Of a DNA stretch of 32,000 nt, positions 3,125 to 32,000 are shown in pieces. The DNA is taken from the NCBI GenBank assembly GCA_963753795.1, contig CAVWDS010000006.1, forward strand, positions 98,866 through 130,865, given 5' to 3'. Under the pieces are notes generated by a model that worked only from the letters and a program-made list of their open reading frames with translations, was not told where the DNA came from and made no database searches. This DNA is from an uncultured Acidobacteriota bacterium. Its GTDB lineage: Bacteria > Acidobacteriota > Terriglobia > UBA7540. The position numbers were made by a program, and so were the translations under genes. Numbering within the stretch: position 1 is the stretch's first letter; each line of letters begins with the position of its first letter.

Positions 3125-3143
3125 ACCCCTACAACTTGTAGGG
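3125..3143 (+). terminator. Hairpin just after the oxidoreductase stop (CCCCTACAA-C-TTGTAGGGG)
   Basis: Perfect 9-nt inverted arms lie 11 nt after the TAG at 3112-3114. There is no T-tract, so intrinsic terminator function is uncertain. Confidence 0.3.
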
Positions 3144-3146
3144 GGA

Positions 3147-3160
3147 TCCGTCAGCCGACG
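3147..3160. repeat. REP-like 14-mer palindrome CCGTCAGCCGACGG (copy 1 of 5)
   Basis: Exact 14-mer, also at 14710 and 27240, as its reverse complement at 23336, and as a variant at 9498. This copy is intergenic. Confidence 0.7.
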
Positions 3161-3242
3161 GGCCGTCCCCTGATCGCCGTGAGGCGGCATCCGTCCTTGC
3201 CGTGCAACTGACTTCTCGCCTAGCCATACGGATCACCAAACG

Positions 3243-9497: not shown

Positions 9498-9613
9498 CCG
9501 TCAACTGACGGGTCATTCCGGTCCCGCAGTCAGGGCGGAAGAATGTCTTTCTGGAACCAGAAGACTTGCGAGATTCGTTGCCGTCCCGCAGTCGCGGGAC
9601 ATCTGGGAGTGAC
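9498..9613. repeat. Degenerate member of the GTCATTCCG MITE/REP family
   Basis: Reading left to right: CCGTCAACTGACGG hairpin (9498-9511), GTCATTCCGG (9512-9521), an internal GCGAGATTCG word, the palindrome GTCCCGC-AGTC-GCGGGAC (9583-9600), and a degraded right end GGGAGTGAC. It sits in the ispA/ispH divergent intergenic region. Confidence 0.45.
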
Positions 9614-9666
9614 AGGCGAAGCAGGTTTCTCTTTATCCTGTTAGAGGCTAAGACAAGAGAATTGCC

Positions 9667-14692: not shown

Positions 14693-14835
14693 AACGGTGT
14701 CATTCCGATCCGTCAGCCGACGGAGAGGAATCTCGCTCTGCGCGAAGGCAGATCAGTAGCCTCAAGGCGTACTGGAGATTATGCGGAAGAAAGACTCAGA
14801 GCAAGATTCCTCGCTCCGCTCGGAATGACACCGTT
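14693..14835. mobile_element. 143-bp MITE-like nested palindrome (GTCATTCCG family), best-preserved copy
   Basis: Perfect 16-bp terminal inverted repeats: AACGGTGTCATTCCGA (14693-14708) and TCGGAATGACACCGTT (14820-14835). Inner 15/16 inverted repeat: GAGGAATCTCGCTCTG (14725-14740) and CAGAGCAAGATTCCTC (14797-14812). The REP 14-mer is embedded at 14710-14723. No coding capacity. Confidence 0.75.
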
Positions 14836-18242: not shown

Positions 18243-19418
18243 TCATTCCCGCGGAAGTCGAAAGTCGCCCTTTACTCTCTTCAGATCGTCTTTCGCGGCT
18301 TTGAAGCGGGGATTCATCTGAACCGCCGTCTCGAGCTCGGAAATAGCCTCCGCGCTTCGCCCCCGCTTTTCCAGGATCAGCCCCAGCACCCGGTGAGCAT
18401 GAGCCGCGTCCGGCTCTTCTCCCTCCGGTTCCTGTGTAAGGTATTTTCGCAAATAGGCTTCGCCTCGCTGGAGCTCGACACCTGATTCCAGCAGAGCGTC
18501 TGCCGCCTCAAAGTAAGGGGCAAGGTCGTCGGGGACGGCTTTTTCGGAAGCAGAGAGAACGGCTTCAAGTTCACTCCATCTCCGCTCAAGGGCGAGAACT
18601 TTCGCCAGGATTGAATAGCCCCTCGCCCGCGCGGGATCGAGCTCGATGGCTTCGCGCGCATGCTTCCCTGCCCCCTCGGTGTTCCTGTGAGAGGGCTGTG
18701 TGTAAAAGCTTGCGAGGGCCGTCTGCGCCTCGTAGTTCTTCGGATCAGCTTGGACGGCTTTGAGAAGACACTCTTCCACTTTGGCAAAGTCTTTTGCTTC
18801 TTTGGCCAGCTCAGCCTGCGCCAGGTATCCATGCACCGGGCTGAGTTGGACGAGTTCCTCAGCAATGGCGCGGGCCTTTCCCTTGTCACCGCCCATCATT
18901 CCCGGGGCCTGAAAGCTGTACTCCATCAAGGCCTCCAACGTATCCAGGTTCTTGGGGTCACGGGCGAGGGAAGCCTCCAACTCACCCTTAAACTTTCCCG
19001 CAAGACTCGCCGCGGCAAAAATGCTGGCTCTTTCCGCCATCTCCCCGTAAACTTCCGCAAGTTGGAAGTGATTGTTCGAGTTTGCGTCTTCGAGCGCCAC
19101 CGCCTGCTGGGCGGATTTCAGCGCGCCATCCAAATCGCCAAGAGCGAGTTTTGCGCGGGAGAGCAGGCAAGCCGCCTGCGCATCGCGCGGGTTGGCGGCG
19201 AGGCGCGGCTCCAGAATTGCCCGCGCCCGCTTCCAATGGCCGGCTTCTATCAACGCTTCGGCAGAGCCCAGGCCGGGAGCGGCGGCCTCCATGGAAGAAA
19301 GTGGAAAGCAGAAAGTAGCAAGCAGAAAAAAGAAACTGGAAACTCGAAAATGGAAACTCGCACCCTTCCCTTCTAGTTTCTGATTTCTCGTTTTTGGTTT
19401 CTGAGTTGCCAGTTTCAT
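18243..19418 (-). CDS. Tetratricopeptide-repeat protein, probably secreted
   Basis: Repeated A/L/Y-rich 34-aa helical pairs run throughout (e.g. AEVYGEMAERA, AQAELAKEAKDFAKVEECLLKAVQADP). The ATG at 19418 gives a basic and hydrophobic N-terminus (KPKTRNQK...FFFLLATFCFPLSS). An alternative ATG at 19292 would remove it. The track ORF start at 19472 is less likely. Confidence 0.75.
   Translation of the reverse strand: MKLATQKPKTRNQKLEGKGASFHFRVSSFFFLLATFCFPLSSMEAAAPGLGSAEALIEAGHWKRARAILEPRLAANPRDAQAACLLSRAKLALGDLDGALKSAQQAVALEDANSNNHFQLAEVYGEMAERASIFAAASLAGKFKGELEASLARDPKNLDTLEALMEYSFQAPGMMGGDKGKARAIAEELVQLSPVHGYLAQAELAKEAKDFAKVEECLLKAVQADPKNYEAQTALASFYTQPSHRNTEGAGKHAREAIELDPARARGYSILAKVLALERRWSELEAVLSASEKAVPDDLAPYFEAADALLESGVELQRGEAYLRKYLTQEPEGEEPDAAHAHRVLGLILEKRGRSAEAISELETAVQMNPRFKAAKDDLKRVKGDFRLPRE
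19291..19414. repeat. Heptamer array H2: AAANNNG x10 facing CNNNTTT x6 (inverted pair)
   Basis: Ten in-register units at 19291-19360, a 12-nt loop, and six complementary units at 19373-19414. It shares the exact 13-mer GAAACTCGAAAAT (19339-19351) with array H7. Confidence 0.8.
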
Positions 19419-19491: not shown

Positions 19492-21426
19492 TCATTTCCC
19501 CTTGAGCCAGCGCTCGCGAATCGCGGTCTGCTGGGGCGTGACGCCGGGCAGTTCCTGAATTGTGTAGGAACTCGGCGCCGGCGGGTCGAGAGTCAGATAG
19601 ATGATTTCCCGTCGGCCGTGGCGTTCGACCGTGAAGGGGACGCGTGCTCCCGGCGGATAGGCTCTCAGGCGTTGATCCAAATCCTCGGTGGCCAGAGGCT
19701 GGTCATCGACCGCAATCAGGAGGTCATCGCGGCCGAGCCCGGCGCGGTCGGCGGCCCCACCCGGCCGCACAGCGGCGACCTTGACACCGCGGTTGTCAGG
19801 GAGTGAAGCTATGCCGATACTAGGCGGGGAGCCTTCGGGAACACCGGTCCGCAGAGCCAATCCGGCCGCAGCGAGCACCGTTGCGCACGGCAGTGGGGCC
19901 GTCCCGCGCACGTAGCTGTCAAAGAAGGCGGTGAAGTCGCTCCCCGTCACCTCATTCACTGCTTCGAGGATGTCCTGCTCCTCGTAGCCCCGCCCCGGGC
20001 CGTAATAATTTGCTGGCGGTGCTTCGTAGAACTTGTGGTACAGCGACGAAAGGACATCCAGAAGGGATTTTGCGCCCTGTGTCCGGGCCTGAATCTCCAA
20101 GTCCAGGAGCATGCCGAGAAGCGCGCCCTTGTTGTAATAGGAGATGGTGGAATTGGCGAAGTTGGTCTCCTGCATTTGCGGAGCCCGGTCGTAGAACCAG
20201 GCGTGGAAGCTCGAGCTCTCGGCGGACATCAGCATCCGTCCCGGTGCGTCTTCCAGAGCACGAATCTCATCGGACAGGCGGCCGAGAAATTGCTGCCGCG
20301 TCCACAGGCCTGAGCGCAACAGGCTGAGATAACTGGCATAGGTGGTCACTCCCTCGGCAAGCCACAGGGAGGGCGTGTAAACTTCGCGCGTGTAATCGAA
20401 AGGTCCGAGTTCGGCCGGCCGCAGGCGCTTGACGTTCCAGAGATGAAAGAACTCGTGCGCCGCGTTCTCTAATGCCTCATCAAGGGTGCCGCTCAGGCTT
20501 CCTCGCAGGATGATCTGGGTGGAGTTCAGGTGCTCCATCCCGTCGCCCATCGAAATGTCGGGCGCGAAGTGGAAAATAAAAGTGTAATGCTCGAAATCCG
20601 GGGCGGGCATCAACGCCATTTCGGTGTGGACAATCTTCTGGAGGCCCTCGAGGAGCTTCGTCGTATCGGTGTTCTCGTCGTCATACGAGTGCACCGCGAC
20701 GCGAATGGTCTTGCCCCGCTCCTGGAAGCGGGCCAGCTTGGTTTCGGCGCAAACCTCGAGGGGAGTGTCAACCAAGCGGTCGTAATTAGCCACTTGAAAG
20801 GTCCGCCCGCTTGTGGAGTCGGATGAACCGCTGATCAACTGCCAGTCTTTCGGTGCGTCCACGGCCAGCGTGAGCGGATTGGGTTTGTGTCCCGCCACAT
20901 ACATGAAGATCGAGGGGCCATTCAAATTCGCGTGCGTGGGGTCAAACTGGGAGAAGGAACCGTTGAGGTCGTTGGCGAAAACCCGGTAGCGCACCTTGAC
21001 AACTCCACCTCCCTGGCGCAGGTCCACGCGCCAGGTTTGCTTGTCGAGGCTCCTCCAGGGCAGCGCCTGCCCTTGCCCGCCCCAGGCCGTGAATTCCTGC
21101 ACGTTCTTGGCGAAGTCGTAAATGGCGTAGCGGCCGGGCGACCAGGCCGGCATGACAAAGTCGAGGGAATCGCCCGAGACCTGGCGGGCGGTGATCTCGA
21201 CGTTCACAAGGTGCAGGTTGGGATGAGTCAGGGTGAGGCGATACTCCAGTTGCAGTGCCGAGGAAGCAGGTTCTTCTGCCGCCCGCAGCAGGCCAACCAC
21301 CGGGGCCAGCAGGAAGATGGTGAGTAGGGCCGCGCGGCGCAATCCGGGCTTACTCTCAGTTGCTCTCTTGGATGAGTTTAGTATCAGTGTTTTCTCCGAT
21401 GACGCCAGTCGGGTGGTTTCGGTCAC
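19492..21426 (-). CDS. M61 family metallopeptidase (glycyl aminopeptidase-like) with C-terminal PDZ domain
   Basis: HEFFHLWNVKRL zinc motif and a PDZ-like GVKVAAVRPGGAADRAGLGRDDLLIAVDDQPL. N-terminal signal-like RRAALLTIFLLAPVVGLLRAAEE. The start is non-ATG: GTG at 21426 or an internal TTG. Confidence 0.85.
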   Translation of the reverse strand: MTETTRLASSEKTLILNSSKRATESKPGLRRAALLTIFLLAPVVGLLRAAEEPASSALQLEYRLTLTHPNLHLVNVEITARQVSGDSLDFVMPAWSPGRYAIYDFAKNVQEFTAWGGQGQALPWRSLDKQTWRVDLRQGGGVVKVRYRVFANDLNGSFSQFDPTHANLNGPSIFMYVAGHKPNPLTLAVDAPKDWQLISGSSDSTSGRTFQVANYDRLVDTPLEVCAETKLARFQERGKTIRVAVHSYDDENTDTTKLLEGLQKIVHTEMALMPAPDFEHYTFIFHFAPDISMGDGMEHLNSTQIILRGSLSGTLDEALENAAHEFFHLWNVKRLRPAELGPFDYTREVYTPSLWLAEGVTTYASYLSLLRSGLWTRQQFLGRLSDEIRALEDAPGRMLMSAESSSFHAWFYDRAPQMQETNFANSTISYYNKGALLGMLLDLEIQARTQGAKSLLDVLSSLYHKFYEAPPANYYGPGRGYEEQDILEAVNEVTGSDFTAFFDSYVRGTAPLPCATVLAAAGLALRTGVPEGSPPSIGIASLPDNRGVKVAAVRPGGAADRAGLGRDDLLIAVDDQPLATEDLDQRLRAYPPGARVPFTVERHGRREIIYLTLDPPAPSSYTIQELPGVTPQQTAIRERWLKGK

Positions 21427-21455: not shown

Positions 21456-21518
21456 TTATTTCTTCTCAGGCCCTAGCACCAGTTTGTGAACGGTGGCCTG
21501 TTCAACCGCCGCATCACT
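21456..21518 (-). pseudogene. Relic second copy of the acylase gene 3' end (last 20 codons plus TAA)
   Basis: Positions 21459-21518 align without gaps to 21544-21603 (50/60 identical, offset 85 nt). The relic encodes SDAAVEQATVHKLVLGPEKK*; the in-gene copy encodes SDAAVEQATVHKLVLGTGKK. It is out of frame with the live gene and is followed by a T8 run on the coding strand. Confidence 0.6.
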
Positions 21519-24069
21519 CACCCCCGGCACCCCATCCCCCCCATTTCTTCCCAGTACCCAAGACCAGTTTGTGAACGGTGGCCTGCTCGACCGCTGCATC
21601 GCTGAAGGACATGGGAAAACTGCGGCCGTTGTACCAGGCGTCGAACTGGTCCTTGTAGTAAGCGCTGAACACTTGGCCGGATTCGCCCAGAGTAATGTTC
21701 TGGACCGAATGGTCGAGGTCCGAGAGATCGACAACCATGCGCATGGAAGGACCGTGCCGGCTGGTTGTCGCTTTTACCGTGGTAGCAGTTCCTGCCTGCG
21801 GAAATGCGCCCACATTCAGCAGCCTCCCCAAAAGAGGAAAACCTTGGCCCAGCGGGTGGTAGAAAGTCAGAAGAATGGTATTGCCCCATTTCCAGGCGTC
21901 GTGACTCCCACCGCCTGCCCGGCCGGGGATTTGCTTTACGCCCTCTTCGAGACTCTTCATCAGGGTATCTGCGAAAGAGGAATCGCTGGGCGGGAGCCAG
22001 CGCGTCCATTTGTTCTCCAACACGTTCTGGAGGAAGATGGTGCTCATCCCCCAGTGGTAGCTCGAGAGGTCGTCGCCCAGTTTGGGTTTGAGGATGCGCT
22101 CGAGCAGGGCCTTGCGGGTGACTTCGCACACCAACGTGGCGGCAGAATCCATCCTGGCCTCGCCATCCCAAGGGTTCAGGAGGCTGAGAGCATACTGGGC
22201 GTCAGGGTCTTGCGGTAGATGGTGAGAGCTGGCTTGCAGAAGTTGTTCGGCGAGCCACTTGTCTTCCAGCGTGACAATGTCAGTCTGAATGCGCAGCATG
22301 TCGGCGACGGTGAAAGCCTTCCCGGCGCGAAGTAGTTGAAAGATGCGCGCGGTGCGAAACGGAGGATCCCAGTGGCTGGTGATGAAATAGGGGTAAGCGT
22401 CAGGCACCACGCGGCCATTCGCCGTGGCGATTATGCCGCTTGCAGGGTTGTAGGCATGCGGAAGATCCTCGAACGGAACGTAGTTGACCCAGTCGTAGTC
22501 GTCGGTATCGCCGGGCACGGGCACTGCCCCGGTGCCCTGTTTGCGGATGGGCACCCATGCCGCCGCGTAGTAGCCGATATTTCCGTCCCTGTCGGCATAC
22601 ACAAAGTTTTGCATCGGTCCCGTAAAGTTGCGCAAGGCGGCCGTAAACTGTTCCCAATTCTCCGCCAAGCCGATTTTGGGTAGGGCGTTGAATAAAGAGG
22701 AGAGGGCGTGCGGTTCGAGCACCGTCCATCGCAGGGCAAGGTCGCGATTGCCCGCATTCGAAATGATGGGGCCATGGCGCGTTACCTTCACCGTGAGTCG
22801 ATAATCCTGCTTCCGGCGAACCTTGATAACCTCGTCGCGGACTTCAGCATCAACCAGCGCGCCGTTGTGAAGGTACCTGTGGGGGGCAACAGGGTCGAAC
22901 CTTTCCGCATATAAGTCCTGGACATCGGGGCCGGTATTGGTCATACCCCAGGCAATCTTTTCATTGTGGCCGATAATCACCATTGGCGCGCCAGGCAAGC
23001 TTACTCCGCTCACGTTCAGGCCCGGGGCCTTCAAGTGGATCATGTACCACACGCTGGGAACACTGTGATCGAGGTGAGGGTCATTGGCGAGTAACGGCTT
23101 GCCGGACCGAGTGTGAGCGCCGTTGACCACCCAGTTGTTGCTTCCCCGCCCCGGATTGCCTGCGTCACCGGCGAGAAGGAGCGTAGCCAGGGTGGGGTCA
23201 AGATCACCAGGGTCCGTTGTCATTCCGAGCCGTACGTCTTCTGTCATTCCGAGCGAAGCGAGGAATCTCGCTCTGAAAGTAACGGACGTGCGAGATTCCT
23301 CGTCGTCGCGCGCCTGAGGGAATCCTCGGAATGATCCGTCGGCTGACGGACTTAAGGGTTTTTTCGGCGCCCCGCCAGGAGCGGCGGCGACCTCCGCCAC
23401 CGGCTCATCCAGCGGCGAGTGGTCCGGAAAGAGATCGGCGGAAAGCTCCAGGCCGAGCTTTGCCCGGATACGTTCGCGCATCAAATCTGTCCGCCAAGTT
23501 GTGCTGAGCGTCTTGGCCATATTCAGCGCCACGGCCAGGGAATCGGCCTCTGTCCATGGTCGAGGCCGGTACTTGAGCAAGTAGAATTCTATGGGCAGGT
23601 GGTCCTTGTGGCTGGCAATGAAAGCGTTGACCCCGTTGGCGTACGCGGCGAGTGGAGCGCGCGCCTTCGGGCTGAGCTCCGCCAGGGCGCGCTCAGAAAC
23701 TTGCCGGAATCCCAAGGTGCGGTTTTCGACGTCAAGCCGCAGCGTCCTTTCGCCGAAAACTTCTGAGAGTTCCCCTTCCGCCAATCGCCGGCTCAAGTCC
23801 ATCTGCCACAGGCGGTCTTGAGCCGTCACGTAACCTTGCGCGAAGAACAGGTCCGGGAGCGAGGAGGCGCGAAGGTGAGGAACGCCGCGCGCGTCGCGCA
23901 AGACCTCGACCGGCGCTGAAAGCCCGTCAACTTGAATCACTCCCTCGACTTGCGGAAGGCTTGAGCGAGCATGCCAGTACAGCCACCCACCGCCGCTCAC
24001 GATGATGAGCAGAAGAAGGATCACAAGAGATATGAGCTTGCGCTTGATAAACTGCCTCACAACTTGCAA
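21514..24069 (-). CDS. Penicillin/cephalosporin-acylase family Ntn hydrolase (membrane anchored)
   Basis: An N-terminal TM segment precedes the alpha domain (FFAQGYVTAQDRLWQMD). The GSNNWVV sequence (23131-23145) supplies the beta-subunit N-terminal nucleophile Ser, followed by NDPHL. GTG at 24060, 10 nt after a GGAGG, is a likelier start than the track's TTG at 24069. Confidence 0.9.
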   Translation of the reverse strand: MQVVRQFIKRKLISLVILLLLIIVSGGGWLYWHARSSLPQVEGVIQVDGLSAPVEVLRDARGVPHLRASSLPDLFFAQGYVTAQDRLWQMDLSRRLAEGELSEVFGERTLRLDVENRTLGFRQVSERALAELSPKARAPLAAYANGVNAFIASHKDHLPIEFYLLKYRPRPWTEADSLAVALNMAKTLSTTWRTDLMRERIRAKLGLELSADLFPDHSPLDEPVAEVAAAPGGAPKKPLSPSADGSFRGFPQARDDEESRTSVTFRARFLASLGMTEDVRLGMTTDPGDLDPTLATLLLAGDAGNPGRGSNNWVVNGAHTRSGKPLLANDPHLDHSVPSVWYMIHLKAPGLNVSGVSLPGAPMVIIGHNEKIAWGMTNTGPDVQDLYAERFDPVAPHRYLHNGALVDAEVRDEVIKVRRKQDYRLTVKVTRHGPIISNAGNRDLALRWTVLEPHALSSLFNALPKIGLAENWEQFTAALRNFTGPMQNFVYADRDGNIGYYAAAWVPIRKQGTGAVPVPGDTDDYDWVNYVPFEDLPHAYNPASGIIATANGRVVPDAYPYFITSHWDPPFRTARIFQLLRAGKAFTVADMLRIQTDIVTLEDKWLAEQLLQASSHHLPQDPDAQYALSLLNPWDGEARMDSAATLVCEVTRKALLERILKPKLGDDLSSYHWGMSTIFLQNVLENKWTRWLPPSDSSFADTLMKSLEEGVKQIPGRAGGGSHDAWKWGNTILLTFYHPLGQGFPLLGRLLNVGAFPQAGTATTVKATTSRHGPSMRMVVDLSDLDHSVQNITLGESGQVFSAYYKDQFDAWYNGRSFPMSFSDAAVEQATVHKLVLGTGKKWGGWGAGGE
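23219..23349. mobile_element. MITE-like nested palindrome (GTCATTCCG family) inserted in frame inside the acylase CDS
   Basis: GTCATTCCGAG occurs twice (23219, 23243). GCGAGGAATCTCGC (23258-23271) faces GCGAGATTCCTCG (23290-23302). CTCGGAATGA lies at 23325-23334, then the REP 14-mer as reverse complement at 23336-23349. It is translated as ...PSADGSFRGFPQARDDEESRTSVTFRARFLASLGMTEDVRLGMT... Confidence 0.75.
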
Positions 24070-24248
24070 ACCTCCACCCGGGATGTCATAAACCGATCTG
24101 CGGATCGATCGACGACGCAGGTCACTCGAGAAAGAAAACTATTCGGTTTTAGCCGGACCATGGTACTTAAAATCCTCTTGGGTAGCAATGCTGAGGGATC
24201 AACATGCCGAACGATCAACGGCCGAGGGACCAAGCGTAGTCACGCAAT

Positions 24249-24275
24249 CAGCCCTCCCCCGCGGGGAGAGGGCTG
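24249..24275. repeat. Isolated hairpin related to the first stem of the 80-bp GGGAGAGGG repeat
   Basis: CAGCCCTCCCCCGCGGGGAGAGGGCTG; compare CCCTCTCCCCCGGGGAGAGGG at 26644-26664. It lies in the acylase/dacB divergent region. Confidence 0.4.
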
Positions 24276-26635: not shown

Positions 26636-26713
26636 GGGTCTTGCCCTCTCCCCCGGGGAGAGGGTGGACCGCGACGGCGCTTTCACCAGCCGGCGCGGGC
26701 CGGGTGAGGGGTC
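26636..26713 (+). repeat. ~80-bp dispersed repeat, copy 1 (CTCTCCCCCGGGGAGAGGGTGG...CGCTTTCACCAGCCGGCGCGGG..GGTGAGGGGTC)
   Basis: It aligns with 31798-31876 in the same orientation with a few mismatches and two 1-nt indels. It contains an 8-bp GGGAGAGG/CCTCTCCC stem. Intergenic. Confidence 0.7.
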
Positions 26714-26752
26714 AGTTCCACGGCGAGGAGGGAGAGGGTTCGGCTGAACACA

Positions 26753-27439
26753 ATGCTTGACAAAAACACAACCCCAGCCGTCGTGCCCATGAGCGCGCGC
26801 CTCTGGCACGCCGTACGGAAAGCCGCGCTATCAGTACTGTTCGCGAGCATCCTCATAATTCCCAAAGTCAGAGCCCTGCGCAGAAAGATTTGGGAATGGT
26901 CGGCGGTTCGAGTCCTGATGGCGTCGCTGGGGTGCTTGCTGGGCTGGCGATACAAGCACGCCAAGGGCGGAGTGGTGGATTTGGTTGTGGGTGTCGCGTT
27001 AATGGCTTTCGGCCTGCTGGTTCGCGCCAAGCCGCAAGCCAAGTCGGTGGACGCTCAGGCCCGCCAGCTCGAGGCACTCGTGGTTCTGAACGGCGGGGCG
27101 TTCATCCCGGCAGGAAAAGAACGGCCCTTAACCATGGCGCGCATTTTCGTGAATCCCGACCGGTTATTCGTGGTTGATGAACGCGAGCACACTTTGGAGG
27201 AGATTCCGCTGGTCCGGGTGCGCGAGCTGGCAGCGCAGTCCGTCAGCCGACGGATCCCCGTCTCAGACGAGCCTGAAGCAGAAGCACAAACCTGGGACCT
27301 CGAGATTACCTGGGAAGCAAAGGAGATGCGCACAGCCCGGTTCCGCTATGACGGCGTGTTTGCCGAGCATCTGGCGCGCGTCGCGGAAACCACGGTGCGA
27401 AATCTCTTGCGGAGAGAATTAACGGTCCTTAGGGAATAG
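26753..27439 (+). CDS. Hypothetical membrane protein (N-terminal TM segments plus a soluble C-terminal domain)
   Basis: 228 aa. Hydrophobic stretches: AALSVLFASILII, VRVLMASLGCLLGW, VVDLVVGVALMAFGLLV. I recognise no family motif. The C-terminal beta-rich region could be PH-like, which is speculative. The REP 14-mer sits in frame inside the CDS. Confidence 0.55.
   Translation: MLDKNTTPAVVPMSARLWHAVRKAALSVLFASILIIPKVRALRRKIWEWSAVRVLMASLGCLLGWRYKHAKGGVVDLVVGVALMAFGLLVRAKPQAKSVDAQARQLEALVVLNGGAFIPAGKERPLTMARIFVNPDRLFVVDEREHTLEEIPLVRVRELAAQSVSRRIPVSDEPEAEAQTWDLEITWEAKEMRTARFRYDGVFAEHLARVAETTVRNLLRRELTVLRE
27240..27253. repeat. REP-like 14-mer CCGTCAGCCGACGG inside a CDS (copy 5 of 5)
   Basis: Exact 14-mer, translated as QSVSRRIP in the 26753-27439 ORF. 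Confidence 0.7.
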
Positions 27440-27570
27440 GGAATAGGTAACCGGGAACAGGAGAAGGGCGAATAGGGAGTAGGGAATCGGGAACAGCGCG
27501 CAGGAGAAGAGCAGCCGTCGACACCTGTTCCCTATTCCCTGTTCCCTGTTCCCTGCCCCCTGTTCCCTAC
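27430..27570. repeat. Heptamer array H5: TAGGGAA-type x12 facing CCTGTTC x6, filling a convergent intergenic gap
   Basis: Left arm 27430-27514, loop 27515-27523, right arm 27524-27570. The TAG stop of the plus-strand gene (27437-27439) is part of a unit. The minus-strand rSAM stop lies at 27572-27574. It could act as a bidirectional terminator hairpin. Confidence 0.8.
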
Positions 27571-29000: not shown

Positions 29001-29036
29001 CATTGCCATTTTCTATTTTCCATTTTCCAGTTTCCA
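29001..29036. repeat. Heptamer array H6: ATTTTCC-type x5 (reverse complement of the GAAA family)
   Basis: cattgcc attttct attttcc attttcc agtttcc. TTTCTATTTTCC (29010-29021) is the exact reverse complement of GGAAAATAGAAA in array H7 (31655-31666). Confidence 0.6.
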
Positions 29037-29069
29037 GGTATATGTTGTAGGTCGGGTCGGAGATCAACG

Positions 29070-29102: not shown

Positions 29103-31663
29103 AGGGCGCCGCTGAAACCGCTCTGTTGCTGGTTACATTCTCTTGCATGGCTTTCGCGCAGAAGGCGGACACCTCGCAGCCGCCGCCCATCCTCAGCGAT
29201 GCGGGGCGATATCCAGCCGCGCGCCACGGCGGGCCGTACATGTGGAATTACTATATCCCGCCGGCGCCGGGAACCACCCCCTGGGCGCCTTGCTGGTCGC
29301 CGGACGGCAAGCGGATCGCGGTGGCGATGCAAGGTTCGATTTGGATTGTGGACCCCGAGACAGGCAAAGCCGCCGAGATCACGAAAACCAGCGGCTACGC
29401 CTCTTTGCCAACCTGGTCGCCTGACGGAAAGTGGATCGTCTACACCTCCGACTACGACCACCGGCGCATTCAACTGGAAGCAGTAGAGCTATCCAGCGGC
29501 GATTTCCACGCGCTCACGAGCGACGACGCGATCTACCTGGACCCGGCCTTTTCACCGGACGGCACGCAACTCACCTACGTATCGACCCTGCCTAACGGTT
29601 ATTTCAATATCTACGTGCGCGCCATACACGATGGCCGGTGGAGCGGCGAGCCCGTTGCGGTTACCGCGGACGCCGCCTATCCGCGCGACCGACTCTATTT
29701 TGGCGAATGGGATATGCACACCCAGCCCGCCTGGACGCCGGACGGCAAGGAGCTGGTCTTCATCTGGAATCGCGACGTGCCTCTCGGCTCGGGCGATCTT
29801 TGGCGGGCGCCGGCCATAGCTGGCGGCATGCGCCATGCGACGCGCATCCTGCACGAACAGACGCTCTACCGCACGCGCCCGCACGTCTCGCCCGATGGGA
29901 ATCGCATTGTGTACGCTTCCACAGGCGGGGCGGCCGACCAGTACAACAATCTCTACCTTCTCCCGATCGGGGGCGGTGATCCGTACAAAATCACCATCGG
30001 AGCCTACGACCACTTTCATCCCCGCTGGTCTCCCGACGGCGAGTGGATCGCCTTCATCTCGAATGAAGCCGGGCTGCCGCAGTTATGCCTGCTGGAGACC
30101 TGGGGCGGCGCCGTCAAGAAGGTTCGCATCACGGCGCGCGCCTGGAAGCGCCCCATGGGCAGGCTTCACGCGCGCGTCATCGATGCGGCGACAGGGCTGC
30201 CGACCTCGGCGCGCATTCAGGGGACTGGGGCAGACGGCCGAGCTTATGCGCCGGTTGACACCTATGCGCGGCTGAGCAGCTCCGGACCGCCTTACTTCCA
30301 TACAACCGGTGAGTTCACCGCCGAATTTCCACCCGGGCGGATGACCCTCGAAGCGATAAAAGGATTCGAGTACCAGCCTGATAAACAGCAATTCGAGATC
30401 GTGCCCGGCCGCACCACGTCCGCCACTTTCACTCTGCGCCGCATCGCGAATCTCCCCGCCCAAGGCTGGTACAGCGGCTCGACGCACGTCCACATGAACT
30501 ACGGCGGCAACCTGCATGACACGCCGCAGAACCTGGCCATGATGGCCAGCGCGGAAGACCTGCACATGGTGAATGCCATGGCAGCCAATAAGGACAACCG
30601 CGTGCTCGACTGGCATTATTTCCGCCCCGGCAGGCAGGAGTACCCGCTGAAGAAAGCCGTTCCCGGCATCAGGATCATGTTCGGTGAAGAGTACCGTCCC
30701 GCGTTCTGGGGACACACCTTCCTGCTCGGCATGCGCGACCACCTCTACTCGCCCTTCGCCGAGAACTATGAAGGGACTGCCATTGCCAGCCTCTATCCGA
30801 CGAACACAGATGTCTTCCGCGAGGTGAAGGCGCAGGGCGGAGTCACCGGCTACGTGCATCCGTTCGGCGATGCGGACCCGGTTGTGTCGGGGTACGGAGC
30901 CAAGGGATTTCCGGTGGACGCAGCCCTGGGCACGCTCGATGCGCTGGAGTGGTCCGGCGCCGTGCGGGCGGAAATGGGTGTGTGGCATCGCCTCCTCAAC
31001 AACGACATCGCGCTCGTGCCGGTGGGCGGCGAGGATTCGGAAAACGACCTCCATGCGCTCAGAACGCTGGGCGCTATTCGAACTTACGTGCACCTCGATG
31101 GCCCGCTCAGCGGCGATGCATGGCTCGAGGCCCTGCGCAAGGGCCGGACGTTCCTAAGCACTGCCCCGCTGCTCGACTTGAAGATTGATGGGCAGTTGCC
31201 CGGCAGCACCTTGCGGCTTCCGGCGGGCGGAGGTACGGTTCTCATTGAAGCGAGCTTGAAGTCGGTTGTCCCGGTGACGAAACTCGTGCTGTACCACCGG
31301 CGCGGGGTGTTGCGCGAGATTCCCGTCAACCCGGACGGCAAGTCGGCCCACTTTCGCGAGCAGGTCCGGCTGCCCGAGAGCGACTGGATTTCGCTCGAGG
31401 CCGAAGGGCCGCCTGATTCGCGGTTCGATTCGGCCTTCGCTCTGGCGATAACCAATGCCGTGCGCGTCTATGTCGGAGACGGAAAGATCCGCGACCGCGC
31501 TTCGGCGGAATACTATGTCCGCTGGATCGATAAGCTCCGCCCCCAGGTCGAGCAGTGGCCGTGGTGGAACTCGGAGGCCGAGAAGAAGCATGTGCTGGCG
31601 CAGCTCGAGGAAGCGCAGCGGGTCTACCGGCAGTTGGCGGACGAGGCGGAAAGTGGAAAATAG
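29099..31663 (+). CDS. Secreted PD40 (TolB-like) beta-propeller fused to a CehA/McbA- or PHP-like metallohydrolase domain
   Basis: Signal-like N-terminus (ALLLVTFSCMAFAQ). Six PD40 repeats (WSPDGKRIAV, WSPDGKWIVYTS, FSPDGTQLTYVS, WTPDGKELVFI, VSPDGNRIVYAS, WSPDGEWIAFIS). The C half has an HxH metal motif (GSTHVHMNYGG) and later His/Asp/Glu residues. The C-domain family assignment is from memory of similarly annotated proteins. Confidence 0.75.
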   Translation: MKGAAETALLLVTFSCMAFAQKADTSQPPPILSDAGRYPAARHGGPYMWNYYIPPAPGTTPWAPCWSPDGKRIAVAMQGSIWIVDPETGKAAEITKTSGYASLPTWSPDGKWIVYTSDYDHRRIQLEAVELSSGDFHALTSDDAIYLDPAFSPDGTQLTYVSTLPNGYFNIYVRAIHDGRWSGEPVAVTADAAYPRDRLYFGEWDMHTQPAWTPDGKELVFIWNRDVPLGSGDLWRAPAIAGGMRHATRILHEQTLYRTRPHVSPDGNRIVYASTGGAADQYNNLYLLPIGGGDPYKITIGAYDHFHPRWSPDGEWIAFISNEAGLPQLCLLETWGGAVKKVRITARAWKRPMGRLHARVIDAATGLPTSARIQGTGADGRAYAPVDTYARLSSSGPPYFHTTGEFTAEFPPGRMTLEAIKGFEYQPDKQQFEIVPGRTTSATFTLRRIANLPAQGWYSGSTHVHMNYGGNLHDTPQNLAMMASAEDLHMVNAMAANKDNRVLDWHYFRPGRQEYPLKKAVPGIRIMFGEEYRPAFWGHTFLLGMRDHLYSPFAENYEGTAIASLYPTNTDVFREVKAQGGVTGYVHPFGDADPVVSGYGAKGFPVDAALGTLDALEWSGAVRAEMGVWHRLLNNDIALVPVGGEDSENDLHALRTLGAIRTYVHLDGPLSGDAWLEALRKGRTFLSTAPLLDLKIDGQLPGSTLRLPAGGGTVLIEASLKSVVPVTKLVLYHRRGVLREIPVNPDGKSAHFREQVRLPESDWISLEAEGPPDSRFDSAFALAITNAVRVYVGDGKIRDRASAEYYVRWIDKLRPQVEQWPWWNSEAEKKHVLAQLEEAQRVYRQLADEAESGK

Positions 31664-31780
31664 AAACTGGAAAATGCAAAACCCGAAATCCGACATTCGT
31701 AAGCCGAAACTCGACAAGCGAAATCCGAAACTCGAAAATCGAATTGCGAAACCCGAAATCGGTAACTAGAAAATTGAAAC
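31648..31780. repeat. Heptamer array H7: NNGAAAN x19 in a single unbroken register
   Basis: ggaaagt ggaaaat agaaact ggaaaat gcaaaac ccgaaat ccgacat tcgtaag ccgaaac tcgacaa gcgaaat ccgaaac tcgaaaa tcgaatt gcgaaac ccgaaat cggtaac tagaaaa ttgaaac. The stop codon of the upstream gene (31661-31663) lies inside unit 2/3. Confidence 0.85.
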
Positions 31781-31797: not shown

Positions 31798-31876
31798 GGG
31801 GCCTTACTCTCTCCCTGGGGAGAGGGTGGCCCGCGACCGACGCTTTCACCAGTCGGCGCGGGTCAGGTGAGGGGTC
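31798..31876 (+). repeat. ~80-bp dispersed repeat, copy 2
   Basis: Same orientation and architecture as 26636-26713 (CTCTCCCTGGGGAGAGGGTGG...CGCTTTCACCAGTCGGCGCGGGTCAGGTGAGGGGTC). Confidence 0.7.
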
Positions 31877-32000
31877 TTTTCCATGAAGGTTCTTGAACGA
31901 GCCGCGGACCCACAAATGAGGTCCGCGCCACGCCGCTCGCTTTCGGCAATCCTGCGCAAATGAGGGCACGTGAGTGCAGGTGTTAAGGGGATGTCGCCAG

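Follow-up and report, generated by a model that had tools for sequence, protein, structure and literature searches.

A palindromic repeat inserted in frame into the alpha-beta linker of an acidobacterial penicillin-acylase-family gene

The acylase gene and its palindromic insert

We analyzed a 32,000-nt stretch of DNA from an uncultured Acidobacteriota bacterium (contig CAVWDS010000006.1, positions 98,866 to 130,865 of the forward strand; hereafter the window), in which a nested-palindromic repeat lies inside the open reading frame (ORF) of a penicillin-acylase-family gene. The repeat falls within the coding sequence of the linker that separates the alpha from the beta subunit, upstream of the predicted nucleophile serine. 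The gene, the parts of its linker and the further copies of the repeat family are as follows.

21514-24069, minus strand: gene of 851 codons for a penicillin-acylase-family precursor (N-terminal nucleophile, or Ntn, hydrolase; S45) that has a membrane anchor or signal helix at its N-terminus
23353-23394, minus strand: native, fast-evolving N-side of the alpha-beta linker (EVAAAPGGAPKKPL)
23218-23352, minus strand: nested-palindromic repeat inside the acylase ORF, 135 bp, 45 codons (S240-T284), in frame
23335-23350, minus strand: small hairpin module TCCGTCAGCCGACGGA, upstream end of the insert (repeat family D5, with solo copies at 3145 and 27237)
23218-23241, minus strand: 24-bp tandem duplicate of the element end (EDVRLGMT)
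23143-23217, minus strand: native C-side of the linker, 24 codons with the widely conserved DPTLAxLL, plus Gly309
23140-23142, minus strand: codon of Ser310, the predicted N-terminal nucleophile of the beta subunit, by alignment with residue 1 of solved beta chains
14693-14835, plus strand: intergenic full copy of the repeat family, 143 bp, between ORFs
9509-9615, plus strand: degenerate copy of the repeat family (D13), apparently intergenic by ORF layout

The initial annotation had assigned the host gene to the penicillin acylase family and pointed to its nucleophile motif. A Pfam profile search agrees, matching residues 53-828 to PF01804 (penicillin amidase; E = 6.7e-222, 739.7 bits against a cut-off of 21.3), with the Gly-Ser pair intact. 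By sequence and by Foldseek, the nearest solved relatives of the 851-residue protein are D-succinylase and the cephalosporin and penicillin acylases. Aligned to the ORF, the beta chains of solved penicillin, cephalosporin and glutaryl acylases start exactly at residue 310, the Ser of GSNNWVV, and the motif is invariant across 71 orthologues (G306-S307-N308-N309-W310 in the numbering of orthologue P0001). More than 30 insert-bearing orthologues have an intact ORF and retain every invariant residue. Between the window and the orthologous locus L003, the core is 86% identical at the nucleotide level and third codon positions are 76% identical, implying about 92% for first and second positions. 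This pattern indicates purifying selection on the host gene.

The inserted element (SPSADGSFRGFPQARDDEESRTSVTFRARFLASLGMTEDVRLGMT) runs through the gene frame without a stop codon, as first proposed; it is open in only two of six frames, both of them gene-sense. Its size had been put at 131 bp and about 44 residues, essentially right against the 135 bp and 45 codons measured here, and its end, placed some 24 codons before GSNNWVV, lies exactly 24 codons (TDPGDLDPTLATLLLAGDAGNPGR) from GSNNW. The range first given, 23131-23349, does reach near the far end of the element; at its other end it starts at the GSNNW codons and exceeds the element.

Read in gene sense, the element begins with AG-TCCGTCAGCCGACGGA, a small hairpin, followed by TCATTCCGAGG and a GC-rich inner hairpin; CGAGGAATCTCGC, an 18-nt loop, GCGAGATTCCTCG, CTTCG-CTCGGAATGACA and the 24-bp tandem repeat of the end complete it. 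The terminal inverted repeat of this copy is TCATTCCGAG / CTCGGAATGA, and the single-stranded DNA of the region folds at -37.6 kcal/mol (z = -3.8). Some orthologues are missing the TCCGTCAGCCGACGGA module, with SLSFRG replacing SPSADGSFRG. The copy number of the 24-bp end unit ranges from 0 to 3 across orthologues, P0024 having three extra and P0015 and P0022 none.

The window holds three copies of the repeat family. GTCATTCCG occurs five times, against 0.33 expected, a count reached in none of 100 shuffles. The longest inverted-repeat pair of the whole window joins 14796-14830 to 23242-23276 (35 nt, 94%), that is, the intergenic copy to the acylase copy. The intergenic copy at 14693-14835 has perfect terminal inverted repeats of 16 bp (AACGGTGTCATTCCGA / TCGGAATGACACCGTT), in agreement with the initial annotation, and the acylase insert is a member of the same family.

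Solo copies of a small hairpin (GATCCGTCAGCCGACGGATC) also occur in the window, at 3142-3161, 14707-14723 and 27237-27256. One stands just past the stop codon of a 725-residue ORF and one within the intergenic element. The third is in frame (QSVSRRIP) in a 228-residue ORF (26753-27439) and may be another in-frame repeat insertion.

The repeat is an indel among orthologous linkers

Orthologues recovered by protein search share 62-85% identity, and several come from source-named Terriglobia (Acidobacteriota) metagenome-assembled genomes (MAGs). In 106 of them, the conserved D-x-P-V-A and GSNNW are most often 42 residues apart (range 39-122); the window gene has 83 residues between them. P0042 (locus L001) and P0052 (L133) have a 42-residue linker, ...VAEVFPGRKVSPQKKQADPPPNSGDLDPTLAALL..., and their DNA holds no trace of the element. 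Of two linkers run by BLAST against sequence outside acylase genes, that of the window gave 177 matches, all confined to the element, and that of L001 gave no match. In the orthologue alignment the roughly 45 residues are an indel that coincides with the repeat, as the initial annotation anticipated, and the homologous segment of equal length that would speak against an insertion is absent from the repeat-free close orthologues. The element was thus inserted, in frame, into linker DNA.

The insert lies outside the predicted fold

We placed the insert on an AlphaFold2 model built on 71 orthologues (model numbering is ORF numbering minus 3; predicted TM-score 0.78), which shows an Ntn-hydrolase fold with a helical alpha domain and a beta-rich beta domain. 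Its best Foldseek matches are D-succinylase (E = 2.5e-45, TM-scores 0.70/0.77) and cephalosporin acylase precursors. The model has an N-terminal helix at 2-33 and a last alpha-domain helix at 189-210; the predicted local confidence score (pLDDT) stays below 50 throughout 221-307, after which the beta domain begins at the nucleophile. Within this stretch, the native C-side of the linker forms a low-confidence helix at 289-295. The insert, model residues 237-281, falls entirely within the low-confidence stretch and so lies in the alpha-beta linker rather than in the folded core, downstream of the final helix of the alpha domain and ahead of the Ser. Sequence alignments with solved alpha chains extend as far as ORF residues of about 186-240, as placed in part with a chimeric query (the alpha part of the window and the linker of P0042) built for that use only. 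This puts the site of insertion at the expected C-terminus of the alpha chain or just past it.

Precursors of family S45 consist of a signal peptide, the alpha subunit, a spacer and the beta subunit, with the spacer removed autocatalytically (PMC11241749). The acylase linker shares several properties with the spacers of penicillin G acylase, cephalosporin acylase and the acyl-homoserine lactone (AHL) acylases (PDB 1e3a, 1keh, 4e55-4e57, 5c9i; PMC11241749): they occupy the same place, from the alpha C-terminus to the Ser, vary in length among members, and are missing or disordered in mature structures. In the characterized enzymes, however, the spacer is native, whereas about half of the present one is a genomic repeat and the orthologues carry a rotating set of repeats. 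By analogy with these enzymes, the spacer, and the insert with it, would be removed in this clade of acylases as well. In the closest solved homologue, 762 of 824 residues are visible, which is consistent with spacer removal without proving it; a literature search for experimental processing data on D-succinylase found none in accessible papers.

The linker is a recurrent site of insertion

The same linker has been colonized repeatedly. In orthologues it is occupied by no fewer than four further repeat families that also have intergenic copies, in addition to nested insertions, tandem duplications and hairpin deletions. The linker types are listed below with the proteins and loci that carry them.

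Type A: the window's element (window, P0004)
Type A with nested element: a second superfamily member within the first, EFTLSGQSEIL...SEGLGMT (P0018/L008)
Type A with internal deletion: deletion exactly between the arms, joining TCATTC to GGAATGACA (P0039/L007)
Type B: ...APSRATLSPWERAD... (P0049/L005)
Type C: ...PLLGGGGGQGVVDG...PLLQQGGE... (P0051/L004)
Type D: ...PTFRSAGAGLKAGAT... (P0046/L214)
Heptamer array: ...NSKFEIRNS...FDFRVS... (P0111/L215)
Duplication: native linker in tandem (P0036/L006; tandem duplication also in L132)

The DNA of the B insert matches intergenic repeats of the window at 26642-26684 (93% over 43 nt) and 31817-31837. For the D insert, a nested palindrome of the form GTAG...CTAC, intergenic copies are present in seven other loci (L002, L003, L013, L064, L087, L130 and L131), and the heptamer insert matches intergenic heptamer arrays. 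The C insert (PLLGGGGG...) forms a clear hairpin with one similar hairpin elsewhere in 1.4 Mb of loci, its multi-copy status being unconfirmed. Inserts of types E, F and G (P0089, P0100 and P0033) were judged from protein sequence alone. Repeat-derived linkers extend to distant acidobacterial acylases of 40-47% identity (L159, L177, L188, L203, L204 and L208), and those of L177, L188, L203 and L208, whose inserts are related to the superfamily, have DNA-level matches to unrelated loci.

The linker turns over fast: genes with 92-96% nucleotide identity in the core differ in having A, A with nested element, short or duplicated linkers. Linker types are interleaved on a crude neighbor-joining tree. 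In P0027 and P0030 a native unit comes first and a unit bearing the element second, which suggests that unequal recombination between duplicated units interconverts linker forms. The linkers of P0019 and P0020 are mosaics.

The B-type palindromic family (CCCTCTCCCC...GGGGAGAGGG plus about 45 nt) is present in the window at 24243-24273, 26642-26720 and 31813-31883. Arrays of 7-nt units (GAAAnnn or GGGAATA types, some inverted) stand at 19299-19364, 27431-27547, 29003-29037 and 31651-31780, and (GAAAnnn)n arrays also occur in several orthologous loci, e.g. L001-L004, L007 and L129-L131. A heptamer-array signature is found, at the protein level only, in the linker of P0102. A large clade of acidobacterial acylases (L149-L202, 40-47% identical to that of the window) has a long acidic run (e.g. 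DDEDDDDDM) at the linker position that carries repeats in the window's own clade. Outside the linker, P0104 has a repeat-like in-frame insert (PGLPALRQAQGGPFDFAQGPE...) near residue 45, between the membrane anchor and the alpha domain, and P0109 and P0117 have one (...GEASGLP...ALPYQ...) at residue 577, in a beta-domain loop.

The repeat family and its relation to known elements

The 26-nt right arm of the element, AGATTCCTCGCTYCGCTCGGAATGAC, occurs exactly in at least 120 stretches of GTDB species genomes. Matches among those listed fall in at least 10 phyla (Acidobacteriota, Chloroflexota, Planctomycetota, Bacteroidota, several proteobacterial orders, Desulfobacterota, Nitrospirota, Gemmatimonadota, Armatimonadota, Verrucomicrobiota and Patescibacteria) and include two cultured isolates, Hymenobacter lutimineralis and Luteimonas saliphila. 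The arm is a hairpin of the form GTCA-N4-GAGCGNAGCGA-N4'-TC. N4 and N4' are fully complementary in 209 of 229 matches and fall into eight stem types, indicating covariation at the superfamily level in a sample that the locus-fetching method skewed toward TTCC/GGAA. For 49 of 135 arms an inverted GTCATTCCG partner lies 60-160 nt away, and many others have a diverged partner.

As in the acylase, members of the family sit in frame within other intact genes. In a DnaE-like polymerase (L043), which carries one at about residues 84-125, the PHP match covers 213 residues against a profile of 164 positions. An Lhr-like helicase of L. saliphila (L057) has one at about residues 150-200, and its DEAD match covers 293 residues against 165 positions. 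These two cases were confirmed with Pfam; a scan for stop-free stretches of at least 200 codons around arms proved unreliable in GC-rich DNA, in which such stretches are often spurious.

Database searches returned no named family. Against Rfam, the whole window gave nothing at the gathering threshold, and permissive scans of both copies gave only chance hairpin matches. No Pfam or NCBIfam model matched four translated frames of the element at E <= 1, and a literature search for its 11-nt core string, GTCATTCCGAG, found only unrelated primers.

The initial annotation had called the insert MITE-like, after miniature inverted-repeat transposable elements. Its terminal inverted repeats, its size (135-143 bp), its multiple copies and its lack of coding capacity of its own all fit this description. 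Unlike a MITE, it has no target-site duplication that we could see by eye at the window copies or at about 45 loci from other genomes, where the flanks of the copies merely extend the palindrome (T...A). No autonomous insertion sequence with the same ends turned up in the examined loci, in which no systematic search was made. The anatomy is nearer to an inverted pair of hairpins of the repetitive extragenic palindromic (REP) type.

REP sequences and their REPIN doublets resemble the element in several respects: the arms are short hairpins with covarying stems and form inverted pairs with a short spacer. Bertels and Rainey are said to have described, in 2011, the mobilization of REPIN doublets by RAYT transposases. 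The absence of a target-site duplication and the presence of some copies in coding regions also recall the intragenic REPs and REP dimers described by Di Nocera et al. (2013; PMC3733652), and the D-type insert of P0046 is GTAG-tagged, as are GTAG-type REPs. The arms of the present family, by contrast, begin with GTCA rather than GTAG or CGTC (CGTC is found only in the small module CCGTCAGCCGACGG, adjoining the loop), no flanking RAYT gene was found in the 1.4 Mb of loci searched, and the element is a mosaic of several hairpin modules. From its sequence, the repeat looks REP-doublet-like rather than demonstrably a MITE.

When 1.4 Mb of loci were searched by tblastn with E. coli RayT, a single match was obtained (L056, 238-702, E = 4e-14). 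This RAYT-like Y1 transposase, from an Acidobacteriaceae MAG, has a different repeat on both sides (...ALKRRSST...), and gene and flanking repeat are probably a REP-RAYT unit unrelated to the GTCATTCCG family. The loci searched thus gave no RAYT gene associated with the GTCATTCCG family.

A close parallel for the in-frame copies is offered by the Rickettsia palindromic elements (RPEs), of about 150 bp, which occur in frame within functional ORFs as well as between genes (Ogata et al. 2000; PMC10969869, PMC3733652). Like the RPEs, the present repeat is a short palindromic family with both intergenic and in-frame copies, adding a peptide at positions compatible with the fold, and it has entered intact genes in a similar way in the acylase, in the PHP domain of L043 and in the DEAD domain of L057. 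It differs in its hosts (Acidobacteriota and many other phyla), in its site, a pro-peptide-like spacer expected to be cut out, and in the repeated colonization of that site by different families. Membership in the RPE family itself is unsupported, with no NCBIfam or Pfam match from releases in which the presence of RPE models is unconfirmed.

A probable tolerated passenger in the linker

We favor, at a probability of roughly 75%, the interpretation that the insert is a tolerated palindromic passenger in the alpha-beta linker of the acylase. On this account, a non-coding, non-autonomous palindromic repeat, made of two inverted REP-type hairpin arms around a loop and belonging to a family spread across many bacterial phyla, entered the linker-coding DNA of an Ntn-hydrolase acylase, secreted or anchored in the membrane, in a lineage of Terriglobia (Acidobacteriota). 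The precursor would cut itself at the Gly-Ser bond, and the intervening spacer would be removed or left as a floppy tail; either fate would leave the linker nearly free of constraint on sequence and length. Insertions with a length that is a multiple of three and no stop codon could survive purifying selection, the 45 extra residues being a passenger peptide while the enzyme core stays under selection. In later evolution, sequence between the arms was lost, the 24-bp end was duplicated in tandem, a second family member inserted itself into the first, and linker alleles probably recombined with one another. The internal deletion between the arms in L007, taken with the lack of compensatory changes described below, points to decay rather than maintenance.

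Several observations weigh against this interpretation. Between the window and L003 the element is 96.4% identical, compared with 75.6% for core third positions (Fisher p = 2e-8) and 68% for the flanking native linker. The tolerance of the repeat family inside PHP and DEAD domains means that an excised spacer is no prerequisite for its survival, and the insert could stay on the mature alpha chain. Finally, a 112-sequence alignment has three further indel sites (at about residue 45, at residue 577 and at the C-terminus), with few sequences each. The initial annotation had regarded the linker as the one place where such an insertion could be silent. Its idea of a tolerant site is reinforced by the many other in-frame repeats at the same orthologous linker; that it should be the sole such place does not hold, given the other insert sites in orthologues and the copies inside PHP and DEAD domains. 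The linker is instead a strongly preferred, non-unique tolerant site.

The contrast between element and neutral sites is similar in most other divergent pairs. In comparisons with insert-bearing orthologues, nucleotide identity is 64-71% for the native linker, its two sides taken together, and 83-96% for the element. This high conservation could stem from gene conversion by other copies in the genome, from linker alleles recombining with a crossover at the element, in line with the mosaic linkers of P0019 and P0020, or from constraint on the primary sequence. Across seven orthologous insert copies, 92.6% of stem cells still pair. In 36 stem pairs we found no compensatory change among these copies, the substitutions breaking pairs or giving G-U; this speaks against the acylase copy being selected for its RNA or DNA structure. 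In view of this lack of covariation, we do not claim a functional RNA structure for it.

The hot spot could alternatively reflect targeting at the DNA level, if the linker DNA or a resident palindrome attracted elements and slippage, or if recombination spread linker alleles. Such targeting would fit the nesting of a second family member inside the first in L008, the position of inserts of three families, all of which follow a Lys-rich A-run (PKK, KKK or GRK), the mosaic linkers of P0019 and P0020, and the tandem-duplicated native linkers of L006 and L132, whose units are able to recombine. However, the families that land there (nested palindromes, GTAG-type palindromes and heptamer arrays) are unrelated, making a common target preference unlikely, and every insert that has survived is in frame and lacks stops, as a selective filter would leave it. 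We infer that tolerance lies behind the hot spot and consider targeting an unlikely cause, one that would complement the passenger explanation rather than exclude it.

Co-option of the insert, through an mRNA hairpin that slows translation of the alpha/beta junction or stabilizes the message, or through a peptide that tunes the timing of autoprocessing, seems to us quite improbable. A translational pause at this point is conceivable, as the alpha subunit of family S45 is said to fold first and then to template the beta subunit (PMC11241749). The element is also far better conserved than third codon positions and the surrounding linker, and persists in lineages with cores only 85-88% identical. 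Yet changes in its stems break pairs without compensatory substitution, relatives with 92-96% core identity lack, replace or interrupt it, and model confidence in the insert is below 50. The four differences between the window and L003 are two synonymous and two non-synonymous and, in numbers this tiny, show no sign of selection on the peptide.

A loss of function is the least probable alternative, and we give it almost no weight: although titles of solved structures of shortened-spacer mutants of cephalosporin acylase and MacQ indicate that a change in spacer length can leave precursors uncleaved, an insertion that had crippled autoprocessing and left an inactive relic would sit poorly with a spacer lengthened rather than shortened, an intact 851-codon ORF, all invariant residues in the more than 30 insert-bearing orthologues, a core under purifying selection and an apparently preserved gene neighborhood. 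In orthologous loci with gene calls listed, a Peptidase_M61 gene lies downstream of the acylase, and the window ORF at 19492-21426 has the same position, the match being by position only.

A broader proposal is that acidobacterial acylase spacers are landing pads whose captured sequence (96% identical, against 76% at neutral sites) modulates maturation or expression through a DNA or RNA motif or a peptide, or that the repeat is an undescribed, structurally constrained hairpin family, with an arm that is identical in ten or more phyla. We regard this as doubtful.

In kind, the insert described here is a case of the known palindromic repeats carried in frame within genes, as RPEs are. What appears to be new is its location in a spacer that, judging from the family, excises itself, the way in which several repeat families have repeatedly colonized that spacer, and how very widely the arm is distributed. 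If the passenger interpretation is correct, selfish palindromic repeats can persist in an essential-looking frame when they land in a protein segment that is later discarded, a natural experiment in tolerance. The length and sequence of Ntn-hydrolase spacers would seem almost unconstrained upward (39-122 residues among orthologues), which could be useful for engineering acylase precursors. In acidobacterial enzymes a linker peptide can be the translation of a junk repeat, a point of importance when genes are annotated or searched for homologues. The hairpin superfamily itself is widespread across many phyla without a match in Rfam, Pfam or NCBIfam, and what moves or maintains it is a separate question worth asking.

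The 3′ end of the acylase gene

A further duplication lies at the 3′ end of the acylase gene, where 21458-21603 (minus strand) contains an 85-bp tandem duplication (61 nt, 84% identity). The ORF ends in ...HKLVLGTGKK-WGGWGAGGE-stop, and a second SDAAVEQATVHKLVLGPEKK-stop copy lies beyond it, out of frame. A similar tail of the GG-GAG type (FGGWGAGGE and variants) follows KK in 14 orthologues.

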